A stretch of DNA of 64,000 bases from a bacterium (GCA_043815505.1 JBDRIV010000002.1:116784-180783); one strand, 5' to 3'. Positions 11,522 to 63,824 are shown, counted from the first letter of the stretch. Numbers and translations are program-made. Notes: generated from the sequence alone by a model not told the origin.

Positions 11522-11769
11522 ACGTCGGAGTAATGCTCCTGCATTTGTAAATCCACTGTTGCGAATTTACTTCAACATACGCATTTCTTCTCTTTTCAGT
11601 CGAAATTCGTGATCGTCCCGCTTAGCGGGACTCTAATCCTAATTTCGAGTGTGTCTTTTTTATCTCTAATTATCTACGTGTTCGTACCACAAAGCGGTAA
11701 AACGTTTTTGAACTAATTAGCATTATCGACTGAAATTATTTATATACTAAAATATTGTGCAAGTCAATA

Positions 11770-11894: not shown

Positions 11895-13331
11895 GTGATA
11901 GAATTAAATTATATGGAACAAGCAGTAAACAATCTCTTGAAATTGAGTCTTTTTGTACTAGGAACAACAGCCTGGTTTTCACGCAGGCATATTTTTAATC
12001 TTGAAGATAATTTAGTAAATGGAAGATTTGTTGAATGGCTTAATGTCGCTTTATATTATGCTGATATACTAATAATAGTCATCGTCATATTGTATTTATT
12101 TAAGACACTATTCGAGCACAATAAGGTAGTTTGGCAAAATGCTATAATCTGGTCAGCTATAATTCTAATCTTATATATATGCTACCAGAATTATAATAGC
12201 GACCATAATAACATATATAGTAGTACAAAGATAATATTCTATATAATCTTCCTTTTTACTTTAATAAATGTTTCACGTGAAACAAAAAATAGGAAGGCAA
12301 TTATTTGGGGCATAATTTTTGGTGCTTTATTACAATCAATAATTGGAATTTTACAATTTGCTAACCAGTCTTCAATGAATCTTTGGATAATTGGTGAGCA
12401 AGCATTATCAACTGAAATACAAAATGTTGCAGAGATAGGAATTGATGGAATATACTATTTACGATCTTATGGGACACTTCTACATCCAAATGTATTAGGT
12501 GGATTATTGGTAGTATCAATCATATACTTGCTAACATGTTTTATGAAAGATAATGTTTCACGTGAAACAAATTTGAAAGATAATGTTTCACGTGAAACAA
12601 TGTGGAATAAAATAATGTTTCACGTGAAACAAAATAAATCAATTTTGATACTAATTTACGGAATTCTTTTTAGTTCACTTATATTTACCTTTTCGAGATC
12701 AGCGTGGTTAGCATTGCTATTAACAACAGCTATTTATACCTTTACTGTTGCAATAAATAGAAAAATGTTTCACGTGAAACATTTGATATATGTTGCGGTA
12801 ATATCTTTTATATTATTAATATTACTAAACAATTTTGTTTTCACTCGACTGGAACAAAATATTAACATTACAGAAAATGAAAGCGTAAGAGTAAATGATA
12901 TTCAAAAATTTAGTGATGGATTTAAGAATAATGTTTGGTTCGGTACCGGATTTGGAAATTACATAGAAAAACTAAGCTCTAATAATCCAGAGATGGAATG
13001 GTGGAAGCTTCAACCAATTCACAACTCATATTTGCTTATTATAGTTGAAATGGGAATAATTGGTTCTATAATAGTATTCGGACTTCTAATATCAATATTT
13101 CTTATAACGTTAATTGTTTCACGTGAAACAATTAGTAATAAAAATGTTTCACGTGAAACATATACAAGAAATATTCTAAATTTATTACCCTTACTAGCAT
13201 TATTAGTAATAATGATTTTTGATCATTATCCGTGGTCATTAGATCAGGGTAATATCTTATTATTTATTGTGATAGCCTTATCAATTACCAGAAATTACAA
13301 GGAACTTGACAATAAGCTTAATAATATGTAA
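11895..13331 (+). CDS. O-antigen ligase/polymerase (Wzy_C-like) family membrane protein interrupted in-frame by seven palindromic repeats
   Basis: Multi-TM protein with an FSRSAWLALLLT motif and a WFGTGFGNY motif. Contains seven copies of TGTTTCACGTGAAACA, encoding NVSRET or MFHVK(H/Q). Confidence 0.7.
   Translation: MIELNYMEQAVNNLLKLSLFVLGTTAWFSRRHIFNLEDNLVNGRFVEWLNVALYYADILIIVIVILYLFKTLFEHNKVVWQNAIIWSAIILILYICYQNYNSDHNNIYSSTKIIFYIIFLFTLINVSRETKNRKAIIWGIIFGALLQSIIGILQFANQSSMNLWIIGEQALSTEIQNVAEIGIDGIYYLRSYGTLLHPNVLGGLLVVSIIYLLTCFMKDNVSRETNLKDNVSRETMWNKIMFHVKQNKSILILIYGILFSSLIFTFSRSAWLALLLTTAIYTFTVAINRKMFHVKHLIYVAVISFILLILLNNFVFTRLEQNINITENESVRVNDIQKFSDGFKNNVWFGTGFGNYIEKLSSNNPEMEWWKLQPIHNSYLLIIVEMGIIGSIIVFGLLISIFLITLIVSRETISNKNVSRETYTRNILNLLPLLALLVIMIFDHYPWSLDQGNILLFIVIALSITRNYKELDNKLNNM
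12269..13160. repeat. Seven dispersed copies of the perfect 16-bp palindrome TGTTTCACGTGAAACA (12269, 12554, 12584, 12616, 12766, 13115, 13145), including a 30-bp tandem duplication at 12545-12604
   Basis: Read directly in the sequence. A degenerate eighth copy, TTTTCACGTGAAACA, lies at 19340-19354. Confidence 0.9.
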
Positions 13332-40912: not shown

Positions 40913-41025
40913 GGCAAGCCCCGCTCCAGTTTTTTAGAACTTAGATACTTATAGTTAAGTAATGCTATTTAGTATCAATATAGTTGTTGAAATTTTTAAG
41001 TTCAATAAAACTGGGGCGGGGCAAG
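40913..41025. repeat. about 113-bp inverted-repeat element, copy A
   Basis: GGCAAGCCCCGCTCCAGTTTT ... 73 nt AT-rich ... AAAACTGGGGCGGGGCAAG. Confidence 0.8.
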
Positions 41026-46462: not shown

Positions 46463-47404
46463 ATGGCTACGCAAAATTCATTAAAAGGGCTTATCCAAGA
46501 CTTCTTGGATTATTTAGAAGGGGAGAAAAACTGCTCTCCTTTAACAACCAGAAATTATCATTCTTATTTGACCGATTTTGCTAACTCTATGAAAGTTTCT
46601 CAGCCAGCCGAGATAACAGATAGTAAGTTGCGAGATTATCGAGTTGTTTTAAATAGAAGAAAAAATTCTAAGGGAGATTATTTAAAACATTCTACCAAGA
46701 ATTATTATTTAATTGCTCTTCGTTCCTTTCTGAAGTATTTAGCCAAGCGCGATATAAAAAGTCTAATGCCTGAAAAAATTGAGTTGGCCAAAGTGGCTGG
46801 ACGTGAGATAGATTTTTTGGAGCCAGAAGAACTCGCTCGTTTGCTTGATGCACCAGATGCAGGAACAATGCGTGGATTGCGTGACAAAGCAATTTTAGAA
46901 CTGCTGTTTTCCTCTGGTTTGCGTGTCAGTGAATTATGTTCACTTGATACTAAGAAAATAAATTTGAAAAAAGATGAATTTTCTATTCGCGGAAAAGGAG
47001 ATAAGTTGCGGGTCGTTTTTCTTTCTAACACCGCTAAGTACTGGTTGAAAAAATATAATGATGCCAGACAAGATGGTTTATCTCCACTATTCATAAGCTA
47101 TCCAAAAGGGAAAGCTAGTCTCGATGTTTCCGATCCAGAAAAAAGAAGATTAACCCCAAGGAGTATTCAAAGGTTAGTTCATAAATATGCTCTTATTGCT
47201 GGAATTACAACCAAGGTTACACCCCATGTTTTGCGTCATAGTTATGCCACAGATTTACTAATGGGTGGTGCTGATATTCGTTCGGTGCAGGCCATGCTTG
47301 GGCACGCTTCTATTACCACTACGCAAATGTATACGCACATTACTGACAAAAGATTACGCGAAGTTTATAAGAAGTTTCACGGGAAAACTAGAAGAGGCGA
47401 GTAG
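46463..47404 (+). CDS. tyrosine site-specific recombinase, XerC/XerD family
   Basis: N-terminal core-binding domain. Catalytic R (LRDKAILELLFSSGLRVSEL), the HVLRHSYATDLL box and LGHASITTTQMYTH with the Tyr nucleophile. Confidence 0.8.
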   Translation: MATQNSLKGLIQDFLDYLEGEKNCSPLTTRNYHSYLTDFANSMKVSQPAEITDSKLRDYRVVLNRRKNSKGDYLKHSTKNYYLIALRSFLKYLAKRDIKSLMPEKIELAKVAGREIDFLEPEELARLLDAPDAGTMRGLRDKAILELLFSSGLRVSELCSLDTKKINLKKDEFSIRGKGDKLRVVFLSNTAKYWLKKYNDARQDGLSPLFISYPKGKASLDVSDPEKRRLTPRSIQRLVHKYALIAGITTKVTPHVLRHSYATDLLMGGADIRSVQAMLGHASITTTQMYTHITDKRLREVYKKFHGKTRRGE

Positions 47405-47539
47405 TCTTTGTTCAGAGTTTGTCGAGGGGTTGTTAATTAGATGCTATAATGTTATAGTAACGCGGAAATTATTTGGCATATGGCATATAGCAAATGGCAA
47501 ATAGTACATAATCGTTTACAATTCAAACGAGGAGAGCAT

Positions 47540-47568
47540 CCAGCCCCAGTTTGAAAAACTGGAGCTGG
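47540..47568. repeat. hairpin-only mini copy of the inverted-repeat element
   Basis: CCAGCCCCAGTTT-GAAAA-ACTGGAGCTGG. Confidence 0.6.
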
Positions 47569-47570
47569 AG

Positions 47571-47760
47571 AGCACGGATTCAAATTGAGAAGAGGAATAA
47601 ATACAGTCGAAATTAGGAGCGCAGGTGAACGTAGTGAACCGAGCACGCGTTTAAATTGAGAGTAGGAATAGTACAGTCGAAATTAGGAACGGAAGGCGAA
47701 GCCTGAGTACGGATTTCGACTGAGAGGAGGAGCAATACGGAGGTCGGTGAAGTTCAATTA
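47571..47760. repeat. about 70-bp imperfect tandem repeat, 2.6 units
   Basis: Units AAATTGAGAAGAGGAATAAATACAGTCGAAATTAGGAGCG... and AAATTGAGAGTAGGAATAGTACAGTCGAAATTAGGAACGG..., each bounded by GAGYACGGATT. Confidence 0.8.
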
Positions 47761-47770
47761 ATTGAACTTC
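47749..47770. promoter_or_regulatory. perfect 22-bp palindrome GAAGTTCAATTAATTGAACTTC, 25 nt upstream of tRNA-Arg
   Basis: Read directly; fully self-complementary. Confidence 0.8.
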
Positions 47771-47795
47771 GTAGACCGCAGTATTGGTCCGACGA

Positions 47796-47867
47796 GTCCC
47801 CATAGTTCAACGGATAGAACGAGAGCCTTCTAAGCTCTAGATGTAGGTTCGATTCCTACTGGGGATA
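47796..47867 (+). tRNA. tRNA-Arg (anticodon TCT)
   Basis: GTCCCCA acceptor, D-arm GTTC/GAAC, anticodon loop CTTCTAA, T-arm GTAGG-TTCGATT-CCTAC. Confidence 0.8.
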
Positions 47868-47946
47868 GGGATAATTATATGTAAGCAAAACTGTTTAGCT
47901 AAACCCTGTTGTAGACATTGATATAGTATTCTGATATGCTTTAAAC

Positions 47947-48411
47947 ATGAATGTAAAATGCAAGATTTGCTCAAAAGAGTTTTATGTAAAACCATCCCAT
48001 AAAAAAATGGGTTGGGGAAAGTTCTGTTCATTAAAATGTGCATATATTGCAAGAAGAAAAGGTAAGGAATTAGATTGCGCAGAATGTGGAAAGAGAATAT
48101 ACCGATCCCCGAAGCAACTTAAGAAGTCTAAGTCACAATTATATTTTTGTACAAAATCATGTCATCAGAAGTATAAAAATAAGTTTATGTCTGGCGAGAA
48201 TCATCCGCAGTGGAAGTACGGGAAATATTACTATCTTCCGCTAATGAAGAGAAAGAAGAAAATGATATGCATGAAATGTAATGAAAAAAATAAAAAAGTT
48301 TTGGTTGTTCATCATATAGATAGAAATAGAAAAAATAATGAATTGGAAAATCTGATTTGGTTATGTAGGAATTGTCATTATCTAGTTCATCAGTATAAAG
48401 AAAAGTTTTGA
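47947..48411 (+). CDS. HNH endonuclease with N-terminal Cys-rich zinc ribbons
   Basis: Four CxxC pairs in the N-terminal 100 aa; C-terminal HHIDRNRKNN...LCRNCH HNH motif. Confidence 0.65.
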   Translation: MNVKCKICSKEFYVKPSHKKMGWGKFCSLKCAYIARRKGKELDCAECGKRIYRSPKQLKKSKSQLYFCTKSCHQKYKNKFMSGENHPQWKYGKYYYLPLMKRKKKMICMKCNEKNKKVLVVHHIDRNRKNNELENLIWLCRNCHYLVHQYKEKF

Positions 48412-48418
48412 ACGATAT

Positions 48419-48490
48419 GGTGGCCATAGTTCAATGGTAGAACACTAGCTTGTGGCGCTAGCTACGAGAGTTCGATTCTCTCTGGTCACC
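48419..48490 (+). tRNA. tRNA-His (anticodon GTG) with encoded G-1
   Basis: G-1 plus GTGGCCA acceptor, anticodon loop TTGTGGC, discriminator C73. Confidence 0.8.
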
Positions 48491-48602
48491 CGGCAAAGAC
48501 ATCTTCGTAACAGAAGGTGTTTTTGTTTTGGATAAAAAAGGACCTGCGGACCGAGTTGGTCGCGCAGGCCTTGCCAAATTCATGTTGCATGTTGAGAAAG
48601 TA

Positions 48603-49519: not shown

Positions 49520-52009
49520 ATGAAAAGCTGTAATGCCATTCTGTGTCTCGTGGTGGTTTTTCTGCTGTCTGTTATGACAGCGGATGCCGCAGTTTTGCGG
49601 GTCCCTCAAAGCTATCCGACCATCCAGGTTGCTGTTGATGCCTCCGTGGATGGCGACACGGTGCTGGTGGACGAAGGCACCTACACTGGTGTTGGTAATC
49701 GTGATATCTATATCGAAAGGAAAAAGATAACTGTAAAGTCGGTGTCTGGACCCACTAAATGTATTATCAACTGCGAGAATAAAGGTCGTGCCTTCATGAT
49801 CTATCTCGAAGGTGATGACTCTCCAACTATCAATGGGTTTACCATTGTAAATGCATCCAAGTTTGTTGGTGGTTTCTATGATGATGGCGGTGGAATCTAT
49901 TGCCACTATGTCAATCCAACCATCAAAAACTGCATTATTATGAATTGCAACGGTGGTAATGGCGGTGGAATTTATCTCGATAATTCCAGTCCAGTCATTC
50001 AAGATTGTGTGATCGCGAACTGTGAAGCTACAAGATTTGGCGCTGGAATCTCTGGTCACAGCGAATGCTCTCCAAAAATTTTGGATTGTATCATTGACAA
50101 TAACAAAACGAACGATGGTGGCGCTGGAATTGCTATTGGTTATAATGGAAAGCCAGAAATAACCAATTGTATTATTACCAACAATCGTTCTAAAGATTCA
50201 TATGGTGGTGGTATCTCAATTTATCAAGATGCTGTTGGAAAAATTCAAAAATGTACAATCATTGGGAATTACTCTTACTCTGGAGGTGGAGGAGTTTACG
50301 TTGGTGGTTGTGGTATTGGTGAAAACCAATTAATCGAGAATTCCATTGTATGGGGAAATAGTGCAGTATCTCAAGGTGACAACATCTTTACCTATAATGA
50401 AGAAGACCTCATCGTCAAATTCTCTTGCATCGAAGGTGGTTGGGCTGGTCAGGGTAATATTAGTCAGAATCCGCAGTTTCGAGATGGTCCTCCCGACAAT
50501 GCATGGAAAAACACTCACTGGCCGTCAGGTTTGAATTCTGACGCCTACTATCTGAAACAAATCGCTGCTGGTGATGCAGTAGATAGTCCCTGTGTAGATG
50601 CCGGTAATCCCGGCACAACTGTTACAGGAACTACGCGCAACGATCAGGTTATCGATTCTGGCACGCCCGATATGGGTGCTCATTACAGAGAATTTTTCAT
50701 CGGATACAATCCGACTAACATGATTTTCACAGCTTCAGAAGGGGAAATCCCCGCGCCACAGTATGTGGAAATTTGGCCGGACGGTGATGGTTCAACTGGT
50801 ATGAACTGGACAGTTAGCAAATATGTTCCATGGATTTCTCTTGATCCGCTTTCTGGAACTTCAACAGGAGAAGTTGATCAGGTGGCAGTGAATATCGACA
50901 CTAGCAACATGAGTAGAGGAACCTACTCAGGCAAGATTTATGTTAATGCCAATGATGCTTTTTGGCCTACAGAAAGTATCCTGATTACAGTTAGCATCGG
51001 TGAAACGGTCACGGGCCCAAAGCTCGTTGTGGGGCCTGGCCCCGCTTACGGTAATGATTCTGTTGTTCGAGTTTTTCCTCCGCAGCAGAATGCAACCTAT
51101 GAATTGGAGTTTGCCGCTTACGGCGTGCCCCATTATGGGGTCAACGTTACGGTAGGGAATTTCGGTGGTGGCGACATGATCGTTACCGGCGCTGGCCCTG
51201 GGGCTGTATTTGGTCCTCATGTTAGAGGATTCTTGCCCAACGGTATTCAACTACCTGAGTTTTCCTTTCTCGCTTACGGAACCAACAAATGGGGTGTAAA
51301 CGTCGCTTGTGGTAATCTGGATGATGACGAAGCAGATGAGATTATTACTGGCGCTGGCCCAGGAGAAATTTTTGGCCCGCACGTGCGGGCGTGGAACTAT
51401 AATGGTTCTACTATTTCTTCCATAGCGAAGGTAAGCTATTTCGCCTATAAAACCCCTAAATGGGGAGTCAACGTAGCGGCTGGTGATGTGGATGGTGATG
51501 GTTACGACGAAATCATTACCGGCGCAGGACCAGGTGCGGTATACGGCCCTCACGTCCGGGGTTGGGATGTGGACTCTGATTCCGCGGTAGCCATACCAGG
51601 AATCAACTTCCTTGCTTATGGAACCAATAAGTTTGGTGTTAATGTGACAGTCGGAGATGTCGACGGCGACGGCTACGACGAAATCATTACCGGCGCTGGT
51701 CCAGGATCTGTGTTTGGAGCTCATGTGCGTGGTTGGAACTACGACGGCGCGCAAATCACAGAACTTCCTAACTTTTCCTTCTTTGCTTGGTCGCCTAACG
51801 ATATACGTTATGGCGCCAAGGTTTATGCCGGTGCTGATTTGGACGGTGACGGCAAAAATGAACTGATCGTTGGCGGTGGTCCTGATCCGAATATGAATAC
51901 CGAGATCAAAGCCTACCGCTATAATGGAAGTATCGTTGAATGGTTCTCCATCTACGAAACTTTCGTCGGATATACGAAGGGAACCAGCATCGCTGCTGGT
52001 AACTTCTAA
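49520..52009 (+). CDS. secreted right-handed beta-helix (pectate-lyase-like) protein with C-terminal FG-GAP/VCBS-like beta-propeller repeats
   Basis: Signal peptide. PbH1-like repeats (NCIIMNCNGGNGGGIY, CVIANCEATRFGAGIS). At least five repeats of GVNV..GD.DGDGYDEIITGAGPG..FGPHVRGW with DxDxDG Ca-binding-like loops. Strong AAGGAG SD. GC about 10 points above surroundings. Confidence 0.75.
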   Translation: MKSCNAILCLVVVFLLSVMTADAAVLRVPQSYPTIQVAVDASVDGDTVLVDEGTYTGVGNRDIYIERKKITVKSVSGPTKCIINCENKGRAFMIYLEGDDSPTINGFTIVNASKFVGGFYDDGGGIYCHYVNPTIKNCIIMNCNGGNGGGIYLDNSSPVIQDCVIANCEATRFGAGISGHSECSPKILDCIIDNNKTNDGGAGIAIGYNGKPEITNCIITNNRSKDSYGGGISIYQDAVGKIQKCTIIGNYSYSGGGGVYVGGCGIGENQLIENSIVWGNSAVSQGDNIFTYNEEDLIVKFSCIEGGWAGQGNISQNPQFRDGPPDNAWKNTHWPSGLNSDAYYLKQIAAGDAVDSPCVDAGNPGTTVTGTTRNDQVIDSGTPDMGAHYREFFIGYNPTNMIFTASEGEIPAPQYVEIWPDGDGSTGMNWTVSKYVPWISLDPLSGTSTGEVDQVAVNIDTSNMSRGTYSGKIYVNANDAFWPTESILITVSIGETVTGPKLVVGPGPAYGNDSVVRVFPPQQNATYELEFAAYGVPHYGVNVTVGNFGGGDMIVTGAGPGAVFGPHVRGFLPNGIQLPEFSFLAYGTNKWGVNVACGNLDDDEADEIITGAGPGEIFGPHVRAWNYNGSTISSIAKVSYFAYKTPKWGVNVAAGDVDGDGYDEIITGAGPGAVYGPHVRGWDVDSDSAVAIPGINFLAYGTNKFGVNVTVGDVDGDGYDEIITGAGPGSVFGAHVRGWNYDGAQITELPNFSFFAWSPNDIRYGAKVYAGADLDGDGKNELIVGGGPDPNMNTEIKAYRYNGSIVEWFSIYETFVGYTKGTSIAAGNF

Positions 52010-55460: not shown

Positions 55461-55566
55461 GGAGCCCCGCCCCAGTTTTATAGAACTCAAATGCTTTAAG
55501 TTAAAAATTACTTTTTAGCATTATTGAATTAGATTATATTGAGTTTTGAAAAACTGGGGCGGGGCG
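55461..55566. repeat. inverted-repeat element, copy B, abutting tRNA-Arg
   Basis: GGAGCCCCGCCCCAGTTTT ... 69 nt AT-rich ... AAAACTGGGGCGGGGCG. Confidence 0.8.
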
Positions 55567-55570
55567 ACGA

Positions 55571-56731: not shown

Positions 56732-56932
56732 GGTCTTGTTACCCAAAGCGTGATCCGCCTTTGACAGAAAAACAATTATTTTATTAAAACGTCTTTTCTA
56801 CTGAGTGGAGGGGTGACGGAGTGGACGATCGTGACAGTCTTGAAAACTGTTGTCTCTTCACGGGGACCGTGAGTTCGAATCTCACCCCCTCCGCTCAGTA
56901 GAAAAGTCTTGTCACCCAAAGGGTGATCGCCC
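56732..56932. repeat. cassette: 28-bp direct repeats (GTCTTGTyACCCAAAGsGTGATCsCC at 56732-56759 and 56905-56932) flanking a 15-bp inverted repeat that directly abuts tRNA-Ser
   Basis: IR-L GTCTTTTCTACTGAG (56791-56805) and IR-R CTCAGTAGAAAAGTC (56894-56908) extend the tRNA acceptor helix. Confidence 0.7.
56807..56893 (+). tRNA. tRNA-Ser (anticodon TGA)
   Basis: GGAGGGG/CCCCTCC acceptor, anticodon arm ACAGT-CTTGAAA-ACTGT, long variable arm GTCTCTTCACGGGGAC, T-arm GTGAG-TTCGAAT-CTCAC, discriminator G. Confidence 0.8.
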
Positions 56933-58951: not shown

Positions 58952-59770
58952 ATGAAAATAGAAAACAAAACATTTCTTATTACGGGTGGTGGCAGTGGAA
59001 TTGGCAGAGCTTTGGTTTTAGCTTTACTAAAAAAAGGAGCACAAGTTGCCGTGGTCGATATCAATGACGCCACTTTGTTGGAGACTAAAAAATTAGCTGG
59101 CGTTGACGACGAGAAAATTTCAACTCATGTTGTGGATATTACCGATAAAGAAGCGGTAACAGCCTTACCTCAAGAGGTTGTTAAGTTTCATGGCCAAATT
59201 GATGGTTTAATAAACAACGCTGGGATTATCCAGCCGTTTGTAAAAGTTAATGATCTTGAATACGAAGCGATTGACAAGGTGATGAATGTTAATTTTTACG
59301 GTACGCTTTTTATGGTCAAAGCATTTTTACCATATCTTATTAAAAGAGCGGAAGCATATATTGTTAATGTTTCCAGTATGGGTGGATTTCTGCCAGTGCC
59401 TGGACAAAGTGTTTATGGCGCTTCCAAAGCGGCGGTGAAACTTTTAACAGAAGGTTTGTATGCTGAGCTGAAAGATACTGGTGTTCATGTTAGCGTGGTT
59501 TTTCCAGGTGCTACCAACACAAATATAACTAAAAATTCTGGTGTACAAGGACCAAGTGATGCAGAAGAAAGTTCTCAAAATAATTTTTCTATGACTTCTC
59601 CGGAAAACGCGGCCGCGACGATTATTACTGGTATAGAAAAAAATAAAACACGCATTCTAATTGGTAAAGATTCTAAAATGATGAATAAATTGTATCGATT
59701 GGCACCAAATTTTGCGACTAATTTGATTGCTAAACAGATGAGTTCTTTGCTAAAAGTAGACAAAAAATAA
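58952..59770 (+). CDS. short-chain dehydrogenase/reductase (SDR)
   Basis: TGGGSGIGRA cofactor motif, NNAG, catalytic YGASK. Confidence 0.8.
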   Translation: MKIENKTFLITGGGSGIGRALVLALLKKGAQVAVVDINDATLLETKKLAGVDDEKISTHVVDITDKEAVTALPQEVVKFHGQIDGLINNAGIIQPFVKVNDLEYEAIDKVMNVNFYGTLFMVKAFLPYLIKRAEAYIVNVSSMGGFLPVPGQSVYGASKAAVKLLTEGLYAELKDTGVHVSVVFPGATNTNITKNSGVQGPSDAEESSQNNFSMTSPENAAATIITGIEKNKTRILIGKDSKMMNKLYRLAPNFATNLIAKQMSSLLKVDKK

Positions 59771-59841
59771 ATTCTTGACAAAATATTAGAAGACAGTACA
59801 ATGTTATATTGTGCTGTTTTAAATTAAAAAAGAAATCCCCC

Positions 59842-60045
59842 GTGACTTAGGTGGTTCAAAAAGGCAAGGCAGCTTTTGTAGACCAAATCAACTTAAGTTG
59901 CGGGGGAACAGGATAATGTGTCAGAGATTTGGGAAAGAAACGTCGCACGATTTCACGGTTGGAAAATTATACCTACTTGTGAGAAAGTGAGGCAATTGAT
60001 GTGAGCCACGAAGTGGTTCTGCAATAAGCGCCCAAATCTCTGGCA
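59842..60045. other. structured noncoding region with nested long-range inverted repeats (unassigned small RNA candidate)
   Basis: TCCCCCG(59842)...CGGGGGA(59905); CAGAGATTTGGG(59918) ... CCCAAATCTCTG(60031). Confidence 0.3.
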
Positions 60046-60066
60046 ACCAATTCCGAGTATTTTAGA

Positions 60067-60143
60067 GCTTGTATAGCTCAGTTTGGAAGAGCGCCTGTTT
60101 CTTATGCAGGAAGTCGTGGGTTCGAGTCCCACCTTCGGCACCA
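60067..60143 (+). tRNA. tRNA-Lys(CTT)-like gene with a non-complementary acceptor stem (possible pseudogene or att-site chimera)
   Basis: Canonical D, anticodon (CCTGT-TTCTTAT-GCAGG) and T arms (GTGGG-TTCGAGT-CCCAC) plus ACCA. But the 5' strand GCTTGTA does not pair with the 3' strand CTTCGGC: only 2 Watson-Crick pairs. Confidence 0.45.
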
Positions 60144-60339
60144 ATCTTGTCCTGAGCTTGTCGAGGGAGCACTAATCGTACATTATAAAAAAATAATCTA
60201 TTTCATAGTTTCTGTTATCGGAGTCTCATATTATCAAGGTTCTACACCTTGGCAGAGACTTGAAATAGAGTGAATCCAAAGCACGGTCAAGTATCGTGTA
60301 TAGGTTAAAATCTATTGGACTCACTAATAAGTTAAGGCT

Positions 60340-60416
60340 GGCGTGTTAGCTCAATTTGGTAGAGCAACCGACTCTTAATCGAGAGGTCGCTGGTTCGACT
60401 CCGGCACGGGGAACCA
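60340..60416 (+). tRNA. second tRNA-Lys(CTT)-like gene with mismatched acceptor and anticodon stems (possible pseudogene)
   Basis: GGCGTGT-TA-GCTC-AATTTGGTA-GAGC; anticodon loop CTCTTAA; T-arm GCTGG-TTCGACT-CCGGC; 3' ACGGGGA-A-CCA not complementary to the 5' strand. Confidence 0.4.
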
Positions 60417-60426
60417 AATCTTAGGG

Positions 60427-60499
60427 AGAACTATCGTCTAGATGGTCTAGGACTCCCGGCTTTGATCGGGGAACCCTGGTTCAAATCCAGGTAGTTCTC
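60427..60499 (+). tRNA. tRNA-Gln (anticodon TTG)
   Basis: AGAACTA/TAGTTCT acceptor, flanked by a further GGG/CCC extension; anticodon loop CTTTGAT; T-arm CCTGG-TTCAAAT-CCAGG. Confidence 0.7.
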
Positions 60500-60620
60500 C
60501 CTTCTCCCAGCGGTTTTCCGATTACCCCCCTCGGACCAACCGCTTTTTTTTATCTCAAATTTCTATATAATAAATAAACCATGTGCCATAAGCCACATGC
60601 TATAAGCCCTAAGCAAACTA

Positions 60621-61484
60621 GTGCCCGAACTTCCAGAAGTAGAAACAATTAGACGTGATCTTAACAAAAAGATTGTTGGCAAAAATATTTCTGACATAAA
60701 AGTTAGAAAGAACAAAATGGTTATTGGATCAACTAAGTCTTTTATTGCGTCATTAAAGGGAAGGAAATTTACTAAAATAGACCGTCGAGGCAAATTAATG
60801 ATTTTCAATTTAGATAAAAAGGATTTATTTTTACTGGCCCATTTAAAAATGACTGGTCAATTAATTTTTAAAAAGAAAAATCAAATAACAGCTGGTGGAC
60901 ACAGTGGTTCGGAAACAAATTTAGAATTACCCAATAAGTTTTCTCATATAATTATTACCTTTTCAGACAAGTCACAACTCTTTTTCAATGACATGAGGCA
61001 ATTTGGTTACATGAAACTGGTTAATGAAAAAGACAAGGATTTGGCTCTAACAAAATTTGGTTTAGAGCCTCTAACAAAGAATTTCCAATTCAAAGATTTC
61101 GGCAAAGTATTTAAAAACAAAAAATCTTCCTTAAAGGCCGTACTACTTAACCAAAAATTAATTGCGGGATTGGGAAACATATATGTTGATGAAATCTGTT
61201 TTCGAGCTAAAGTTTTGCCAACCAAAAAAGTCTATAGAATATCACAAAAAAAAATTACAGAACTTTTTAAAGCTACCAACTATATTATAAAAAAAGCCAT
61301 TCAAAAACGCGGAACAACTTTTAATGATTATGTTGATGCTGATGGAAAAACTGGAAATTTCATTAAGTATTTAAAGGTTTATCAACGCGCTGGTGAAACT
61401 TGCCTACGCTGCAAAAAAGTAAAAATAAAAAAAGTAAAATCTGCCGGCAGGGGAACTCACCTCTGTCCTTATTGCCAGAAATAA
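60621..61484 (+). CDS. mutM: formamidopyrimidine-DNA glycosylase
   Basis: N-terminal MPELPEVE (catalytic Pro2, Glu3), H2TH domain, C-terminal C4 zinc finger (CLRC...CPYC). Confidence 0.85.
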   Translation: MPELPEVETIRRDLNKKIVGKNISDIKVRKNKMVIGSTKSFIASLKGRKFTKIDRRGKLMIFNLDKKDLFLLAHLKMTGQLIFKKKNQITAGGHSGSETNLELPNKFSHIIITFSDKSQLFFNDMRQFGYMKLVNEKDKDLALTKFGLEPLTKNFQFKDFGKVFKNKKSSLKAVLLNQKLIAGLGNIYVDEICFRAKVLPTKKVYRISQKKITELFKATNYIIKKAIQKRGTTFNDYVDADGKTGNFIKYLKVYQRAGETCLRCKKVKIKKVKSAGRGTHLCPYCQK

Positions 61485-63715: not shown

Positions 63716-63824
63716 CCCTTGCCCCGCCCAAGTTACTTTAATTGATATAATCGCTTGTTTAAGCATAAATAGTTCTTCTATGGTTTTAATCTATCAATAA
63801 AATTAAACTGGAGCGGGGCTTGCC
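63716..63824. repeat. inverted-repeat element, copy C (opposite orientation to copy A)
   Basis: CTTGCCCCGCCCAAGTT ... 70 nt AT-rich ... AAACTGGAGCGGGGCTTGCC. Confidence 0.8.

Follow-up and report, generated by a model that had tools for sequence, protein, structure and literature searches.

Two tRNA-like loci with unpaired acceptor strands in a Patescibacteria genome: candidate hybrid remnants of class-I tRNA genes

Known tRNA genes with mismatched or missing acceptor strands

Transfer RNAs whose encoded acceptor strands do not pair are known from the mitochondria of Acanthamoeba, Dictyostelium and chytrids, where the mismatches are fixed by 5' editing involving Thg1-like proteins. In these organelles, only the first three pairs carry mismatches, many tRNAs are affected, and the 3' strand serves as the template. 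Bacterial Thg1-like proteins also repair 5'-truncated tRNAs in vitro. A second way in which tRNA genes can be altered is through mobile elements, with the anticodon loop and the T loop being the classical sites at which tyrosine integrases cross over in tRNA genes. Partial and hybrid tRNA genes that derive from element integration and are mistaken for tRNAs have been documented in prokaryotes (van der Gulik et al. 2023; PMC9897764).

The window analyzed here, meaning the whole stretch of 64,000 nucleotides (GCA_043815505.1 JBDRIV010000002.1:116784-180783), derives from a Patescibacteria (CPR) metagenome-assembled genome of the streamlined, reduced type and has a GC content of 0.365. No close relative of the source organism was present in any collection searched. 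Fpg, encoded directly downstream of the tRNA-like loci, is most similar to proteins from metagenome-assembled genomes of Komeilibacteria, Parcubacteria and Paceibacterota, at only 59-63% identity, and the closest relative of the SDR encoded directly upstream of the RNA cluster is about 70% identical. Between these genes lies an 840-nt intergenic region that is laid out like one transcription unit, with a promoter, two structured modules, a tRNA-like locus (L1), a spacer, a second tRNA-like locus (L2), a tRNA-Gln and a terminator in succession:

Upstream: genes for CorC/CNNM, DUF7670 and SDR, all ordinary cellular genes
59775..59802, + strand: sigma-70-type promoter TTGACA-16 nt-TACAAT (11 of 12 consensus matches)
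59836..59907, + strand: module 1, a long hairpin with a 17-bp basal stem, TCCCCCGTGACTTAGGT / ACTTAAGTTGCGGGGGA (72 nt; MFE -36.7 kcal/mol, z = -5.7)
59919..60045, + strand: module 2, a branched domain with a 15-nt inverted repeat, TGTCAGAGATTTGGG / CCCAAATCTCTGGCA, as its closing stem, then A-CCA (127 nt; z = -5.4)
60067..60143, + strand: L1, tRNA-like gene with anticodon CUU and encoded ACCA (sequence, Rfam, register scan)
60144..60339, + strand: spacer between L1 and L2, 196 nt, AT-rich and weakly structured (z about -2 to -2.6; GC 0.36)
60340..60416, + strand: L2, tRNA-Lys(CUU)-like gene with encoded ACCA (sequence, Rfam, register scan)
60424..60502, + strand: tRNA-Gln(UUG), 60427-60499, with leader and trailer (ARAGORN; Rfam 45.2 bits)
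60509..60551, + strand: terminator-like two-step hairpin AGCGGTT..TCCGA / TCGGA..AACCGCT, then T8 (sequence, centroid structure)
Downstream: genes for Fpg, Fur and Fe/Mn-SOD, all ordinary cellular genes

Anatomy and affinities of the two loci

From 5' to 3', L1 reads GCTTGTA / TA / GCTC-AGTTTGGAA-GAGC / G / CCTGT-TTCTTAT-GCAGG / AAGTC / GTGGG-TTCGAGT-CCCAC / CTTCGGC / A / CCA, and L2 reads GGCGTGT / TA / GCTC-AATTTGGTA-GAGC / A / ACCGA-CTCTTAA-TCGAG / AGGTC / GCTGG-TTCGACT-CCGGC / ACGGGGA / A / CCA. Each has a 4-bp D stem, a D loop with G18G19, a 7-nt anticodon loop (UUCUUAU in L1, CUCUUAA in L2), a 5-nt variable loop, a 5-bp T stem, a TTCGANT-type loop and an encoded A-CCA. L1 has all three arms intact, with five base pairs in the anticodon stem, and the tertiary nucleotides U8, A14, G18G19, A21, U33, G53-C56, A58 and C61 are undamaged. 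L2 carries a non-standard A15.C48 and has two of the five pairs of its anticodon stem mismatched (27-43 A.G and 28-42 C.A). Both loci exceed the gathering score of 29 for the Rfam tRNA model (RF00005): L1 scores 47.8 bits over its full length, with the model flagging the same non-standard acceptor pairs as described below, and L2 scores 36.8 bits in a local alignment that covers only model positions 6-65. Their likeness to tRNA is beyond chance in the 64-kb window (E = 4e-7 for L1 and 4e-4 for L2).

The two loci differ in their affinities. L2 is 78-84% identical to annotated phage tRNA-Lys genes and has a standard Lys anticodon loop; over positions 6-75, it is about 84% identical to a mycobacteriophage tRNA-Lys(ctt), and its descent from a tRNA-Lys(CUU) is clear. 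The anticodon loop of L1 lacks the usual C32 and A38, having U32 and U38 instead, and its best full-length phage matches are tRNA-Thr. Because of this loop, these relatives and a 3' strand of the Thr/Phe/Leu type, a Lys identity of L1 appears doubtful. An 8-nt direct repeat, GAGCTTGT, lies on both sides of L1 (at 60065 and 60154); considered as a target-site duplication, it was judged compatible with chance.

Unpaired acceptor strands

The original prediction held that the acceptor strands of both loci cannot pair, with only two or three Watson-Crick pairs in each, despite normal D arms, 7-nt CTT loops, T arms and an encoded ACCA, and that the second locus has two further mismatches in its anticodon stem. 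The sequence reads as described. The L1 strands GCUUGUA / CUUCGGC pair at four of seven positions, two of them Watson-Crick (G1-C72 and C2-G71) and two wobble (U3.G70 and G5.U68), leaving 4-69, 6-67 and 7-66 unpaired. The L2 strands GGCGUGU / ACGGGGA likewise pair at four of seven, through three Watson-Crick pairs (C3-G70, G6-C67 and U7-A66) and one wobble (U5.G68), with 1-72, 2-71 and 4-69 unpaired. Four of seven pairs in the canonical register is about what random sequence would give. Misalignment had been named as a possible flaw in the prediction, but no other register restores either acceptor stem: among 1176 registers scanned per locus, none provides a 7-bp helix abutting U8 and the T stem. 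Perfect partners for the four acceptor strands are found neither nearby on the same strand nor elsewhere in the window, and leader-trailer helices around L1 and L2 are not significant. A pairing of L1's 3' acceptor strand with the first 23 nt of the spacer (60144-60166) is possible.

Such defects are exceptional among the tRNAs of the window and of the relatives' loci compared with it. A comparison of tRNA-finder scores had been proposed together with the prediction, and the finders disagree: ARAGORN reports neither locus, while the Rfam model gives both the low scores stated above. Two marks of a canonical tRNA are missing from L1 and L2, namely a 7-bp acceptor stem and a score comparable to those of the other tRNAs of the genome. 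The other six tRNAs of the window have completely paired acceptor stems and scores of 55-71 bits, and none of the 17 full-length tRNAs present in 286 kb of loci from relatives among the Patescibacteria falls below 52 bits. Across the window and these relatives' loci, the only low scorers are L1, L2 and the adjacent tRNA-Gln(UUG). The 10-bp acceptor helix that had been pointed out for this neighboring tRNA is real and perfect, extended by a leader GGG and a trailer CCC (GGGAGAACTA / TAGTTCTCCC), though the tRNA-Gln is itself atypical, with 45.2 bits, a 3-nt variable loop, A1-U72 and an anticodon stem that has either a G30.G40 mismatch or perfect pairing around an 8-nt loop, GCUUUGAU. CCA is encoded in both L1 and L2 versus one of the seven other tRNAs of the window. 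No tmRNA was reported by ARAGORN, and no non-tRNA Rfam family was significant in 59000-61200 or in the whole window.

The positions of the unpaired nucleotides bear on whether L1 and L2 might be genuine tRNAs with acceptor stems that are repaired after transcription, through template-dependent 5' editing of the Thg1-like kind or through 3' editing. This is extremely unlikely. While the acceptor mismatches of L2, at 1, 2 and 4, cluster at its 5' end, those of L1, at 4, 6 and 7, lie outside the window of positions 1-3 within which known 5' editing operates, and seven other tRNAs of the genome do without any repair. An encoded CCA also speaks against a rebuilt 3' strand, and the anticodon stem of L2 would remain broken in any case.

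Mismatch topology and the origin of the strands

The mismatches are not scattered. In L1, the acceptor stem holds all three and the remaining 14 pairs are free of them (probability by chance, C(7,3)/C(21,3) = 0.026); in L2, all five are distributed over the acceptor and anticodon stems, with the nine D- and T-stem pairs unaffected (C(12,5)/C(21,5) = 0.039 by chance). The affected stems are those connecting the 5' part of each molecule with its 3' part, while the D and T stems each lie within one half. In L1, five of the seven acceptor positions are off any perfectly paired ancestor while the rest of the locus is undamaged, which argues for block replacement, the simplest account of the damage, instead of gradual decay.

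This pattern weighs upon a rival account of the loci, that they are ordinary pseudogenes of redundant isoacceptor genes produced in place by point mutation only, with no recombination and no foreign segment. L2 could be derived in this way from a tRNA-Lys with a GCCCCGT/ACGGGGY acceptor by about four acceptor and two anticodon-stem changes; its A15.C48 would also fit, as would an AT-rich genome in which AAG is a minor codon. However, L1 would require five changes in one 7-nt strand and none elsewhere, the disruptive changes at each locus all fall in the stems bridging the 5' and 3' parts (p about 0.03-0.04), and ACCA and all loop nucleotides are kept in both. Point mutation alone is distinctly unlikely as an explanation for the pair.

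The single strands point to mixed parentage. The 3' 26-mer of L1, GGGTTCGAGTCCCACCTTCGGCACCA, which extends from the T loop to CCA, occurs 31 times in viral contigs, in every case as the 3' end of a tRNA-Leu or of an att-type partial duplicate, and five viral contigs hold both a complete tRNA-Leu and a 3' fragment with this block. It is thus a widespread tRNA-Leu terminus of the sort borne by integrating elements. Its diagnostic part amounts to only 11 nt, CTTCGGCACCA, a strand that class-I tRNAs also employ. The acceptor GCCGAAG/CTTCGGCA is also used by tRNA-Thr and tRNA-Phe, and the T stem GTGGG/CCCAC of L1 is also found in tRNA-Lys of related Patescibacteria. With CTTCGGC opposite GCCGAAG in class-I tRNA-Thr and tRNA-Phe and this T stem in relatives' tRNA-Lys, the case for L1 as necessarily a Lys/Leu chimera is weakened. 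The 5' strand of L1 is equally at home elsewhere, with GCTTGTA/TACAAGC used by a tRNA-Asn. For L2, acceptors of the NCCCCGT/ACGGGGN type are used by tRNAs for Arg, Thr, Asn and Lys; its 3' strand being common in real tRNAs, the misfit would lie in the 5' strand plus position 72. Each acceptor strand of L1 and L2 looks genuine and in register, and it is the two strands of each locus that look mismatched in origin. The encoding of CCA in both, when it is encoded in one of seven other tRNAs, fits a 3' part that is non-native or element-borne.

On balance, L1 and L2 are probably non-functional hybrid or fragment remnants of class-I tRNA genes decoding ANN codons, with L2 descended from a tRNA-Lys(CUU) and L1 of Thr- or Lys-like descent. 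In both, the 5' acceptor strand and the 3' part would no longer come from the same tRNA. In L1, position 8 (or the T arm) through CCA may form one coherent piece of the canonical GCCGAAG/CTTCGGC-A-CCA type joined to a foreign 5' strand, the replaced portion being the 5' strand or else the sequence that follows the T arm. L2 could have arisen by a single crossover in the anticodon loop between two tRNA-Lys-like sequences, or else by several point mutations; in the former case, all sequence 3' of the anticodon loop would have been replaced, and a common CGACUCUUAAUCG core would permit such a crossover. The recombination may have been site-specific, with the anticodon loop or the T loop as an integrase's crossover site, or may have taken place between short homologies.

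It is also conceivable that the joins were made by assembly, with the mismatches being a consensus artefact of the metagenome-assembled genome such as a chimeric join within tRNA genes. The locus is known from one assembly, and sequence blocks common to tRNA genes can confuse assembly graphs. Such an artefact is nevertheless very unlikely, since the blocks that the supposed parents share are short (about 13 nt at the L2 anticodon loop and 17-20 nt at the L1 T arm, below usual assembler k-mers) and two events 200 nt apart would be needed; the flanks are, moreover, coherent in composition and gene content.

Pseudogenes and att-site chimeras had both been listed as possible explanations for the loci. 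These fit best, as indicated by the mismatch topology, the Leu-type 3' end of L1 and the encoded CCA, but the hallmarks of an att site are absent. A coherent tRNA block reaching the 3' end with a non-cognate 5' side, as in att fragments, spans positions 8-76 of L1 and about 5-76 of L2. No integrase or mobile-element genes are found among the genes adjoining L1 and L2, and the sole tyrosine recombinase in the window is Xer-like and lies 13 kb away (46463-47404). The 64-kb window, which extends only 3.5 kb downstream of the loci, contains no genomic island, direct repeat of a displaced 3' end, second copy or tRNA fragment.

Searches for parents and orthologues were likewise negative. The chimera signature of L1 has no match in metagenome contigs, and the L1 body and the L2 3' end have none in viral contigs. 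Neither hypothetical intact parent of L2, with both strands of each stem required, is matched in viral contigs; the predicted 3'-half parent of L2, with TCGAG as 3' strand of the anticodon stem and ACGGGG as acceptor strand, has two matches in metagenome contigs, both in coding sequence and attributable to chance. No tRNA cluster occurs upstream of fpg in relatives (38 GTDB loci and three look-ups for closer homologues), which also show no BLAST similarity to the cluster, synteny by way of the SDR gene is not conserved in relatives, and no orthologous locus was found in the genome, metagenome, viral or phage collections searched. The lineage being unsampled, these absences of parents, chimera signature and orthologous locus are weak negatives.

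A structured unit from promoter to terminator

The promoter at 59775..59802 is the sole strong promoter-like site on the + strand ahead of the RNA cluster, and a promoter scan found none between the modules, L1, L2 and tRNA-Gln, making co-transcription of the cluster the natural inference. Lying between this strong promoter and the tRNA-Gln, L1 and L2 would be transcribed. The terminator hairpin is missing from a simple terminator scan because its loop is too long. Over its 751 nt, the unit folds much more stably than shuffled sequence does (z = -9.4). GC content is 0.49 in module 1 and 0.44 in module 2, versus 0.365 for the window. Neither belongs to an Rfam family, has a second copy in the window or matches phage records. 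SRP, 6S, RNase P, tmRNA, ROOL/GOLLD and riboswitch RNAs were considered for the modules and have no Rfam support, and repeat-family membership was set aside given that the window holds no other copy. The spacer between L1 and L2 also has no detected homologue. The closing helix of module 2 is followed by A-CCA-AT, like the 3' ends of L1 and L2, and the 3' strand of module 1, GCGGGGGAAC, resembles the L2 3' end, CACGGGGAAC.

Given that neither locus can form an acceptor helix, transcripts of L1 and L2 should not undergo RNase P processing or aminoacylation. A related Patescibacteria contig (L097, positions 2160-2489) carries a class-A bacterial RNase P RNA (154.6 bits) beside a tRNA, indicating that relatives have an RNA-based RNase P, which normally needs the acceptor/T-arm helix in its substrates.

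The same organization can be read as that of functional tRNA-shaped RNAs that need no acceptor helix and form part of a multi-module transcript with modules 1 and 2. These would be decoys or ligands for proteins that bind the anticodon loop or elbow, such as anticodon nucleases and modification enzymes, or would punctuate the processing of the structured modules on either side. Both loci keep their three arms and conserved tertiary nucleotides; five consecutive structured modules are bracketed by a strong promoter and a terminator in a streamlined host genome; the unit reaches z = -9.4, with raised GC in modules 1 and 2; and at the end of module 2, L1 and L2 alike, A-CCA-A(A)T comes after a helix. 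The intact tertiary nucleotides over about 75 nt, the streamlined genome and the position between promoter and tRNA could reflect selection on L1 and L2 instead of relic status. However, no related locus was found in genome, metagenome, viral and phage collections, no known RNA family matches and no partner protein gene lies nearby, and the additional defects of L2 (two anticodon-stem mismatches and A15.C48) resemble decay. A function of this kind is considered unlikely. A bolder version, less likely again, is that the unit at 59775-60551 is a set of 'open-ended' tRNA mimics, comprising L1, L2 and possibly the CCA-ended module 2, and forms a tRNA-derived regulatory cluster specific to this Patescibacteria lineage. 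Such mimics would serve as decoys or ligands for factors that target tRNA-Lys or bind the elbow, or would be completed by a repair or trans-pairing step.

Other structured and repeated elements in the window

Hairpins and repeats accompany several other tRNA genes in the window. Long hairpins immediately 5' of tRNA genes recur: one with 31-nt arms (47729-47790) lies directly upstream of tRNA-Arg(tct), and others occur at 55464-55565 and 59836-60045. Three MITE-like elements of about 100 nt (40918-41022, 55464-55565 and 63721-63819) share 16-nt terminal inverted repeats, GCCCCGCCCCAGTTTT / AAAACTGGGGCGGGGC, around a variable interior, with six matches to the terminal repeat in the window versus 0.23 expected by chance; the copies are flanked by 2-nt direct repeats (AA, GA and TT), and the second abuts tRNA-Arg(gcg). 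Leader and trailer of a tRNA-Ser(tga) within 56793-56906 pair perfectly over 13 bp, CTTTTCTACTGAG ... CTCAGTAGAAAAG (duplex z = -5.6), around the tRNA, an arrangement seen for no other tRNA in the window; the tRNA seems to be placed within a processing stem or split hairpin. Of the seven normal tRNAs, three have the motif CCGACGW / GCGACGA immediately before their 5' end: Ala(ggc) (11522-11530, - strand), Arg(tct) (47787-47795) and Arg(gcg) (55563-55570). The motif may serve 5' processing or act as a leader signal.

Elsewhere in the window, at 46463-48491, a gene for a Xer-like tyrosine recombinase (313 aa) precedes tRNA-Arg(tct), the gene for a small HNH endonuclease (47947-48411) and tRNA-His. 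At least five copies of a perfect 16-nt palindrome, TGTTTCACGTGAAACA, occur at 12552-12783 and 13111-13160 in a low-GC (0.29) stretch and look like an operator array for a dimeric regulator. Near the recombinase region, the most GC-rich part of the window (0.47) contains the gene for an 829-aa beta-helix/FG-GAP protein (49520-52009).

Implications for annotation and decoding capacity

Annotations should leave L1 and L2 out of the count of tRNA-Lys(CUU) genes. They pass generic covariance models but not ARAGORN, and including them would distort the decoding capacity inferred for a reduced Patescibacteria genome. The suggestion that they might include the only Lys(CTT) decoder is unsupported: the window represents only 64 kb, whereas the contig is 567 kb or longer, and Lys codons in the window comprise 826 AAA and 184 AAG, so that AAG makes up 18%. 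AAG can be read by tRNA-Lys(UUU). As AAG is a minor Lys codon, a CUU isoacceptor would be dispensable provided that tRNA-Lys(UUU) is present. tRNA gene remnants are already known as a kind, of which L1 and L2, so read, are a further example; they would illustrate cleanly how a tRNA gene can die by replacement of a strand or half instead of slow decay, and how relics can persist in an active tRNA transcription unit. If the two loci instead yield stable, conserved RNAs, they would represent a new type of tRNA mimic.

Comparison with known systems

Three known systems resemble this locus in part. Phage tRNA clusters with small stable non-tRNA RNAs, such as the tRNA region of T4, likewise mix tRNAs, low-scoring tRNA-like sequences and structured RNAs. 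Unlike those clusters, the unit described here has no flanking phage genes, and its similarity to phage records is that of generic tRNA only. The 5'-edited tRNAs of mitochondria share with L1 and L2 the combination of unpaired acceptor strands with an otherwise normal cloverleaf; in contrast to them, L1 has its mismatches at pairs 4, 6 and 7, and normal tRNAs make up the rest of the set here.

The closest resemblance is to att-site tRNA fragments. These are usually 20-50 nt long, whereas L1 and L2 are nearly full length (positions about 5-8 to 76), and the present case also departs from them in that one tRNA transcription unit holds two distinct relics, separated by 200 nt, with no integrase, island or complete partner copy in the 64-kb window. 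Like L1 and L2, however, att-site fragments are coherent to the 3' end including CCA and have a non-cognate 5' side, and they pass generic tRNA models at low score with an acceptor stem that appears broken (van der Gulik et al. 2023; PMC9897764). The att-site duplicates in viral contigs carry the same 3' block as L1.
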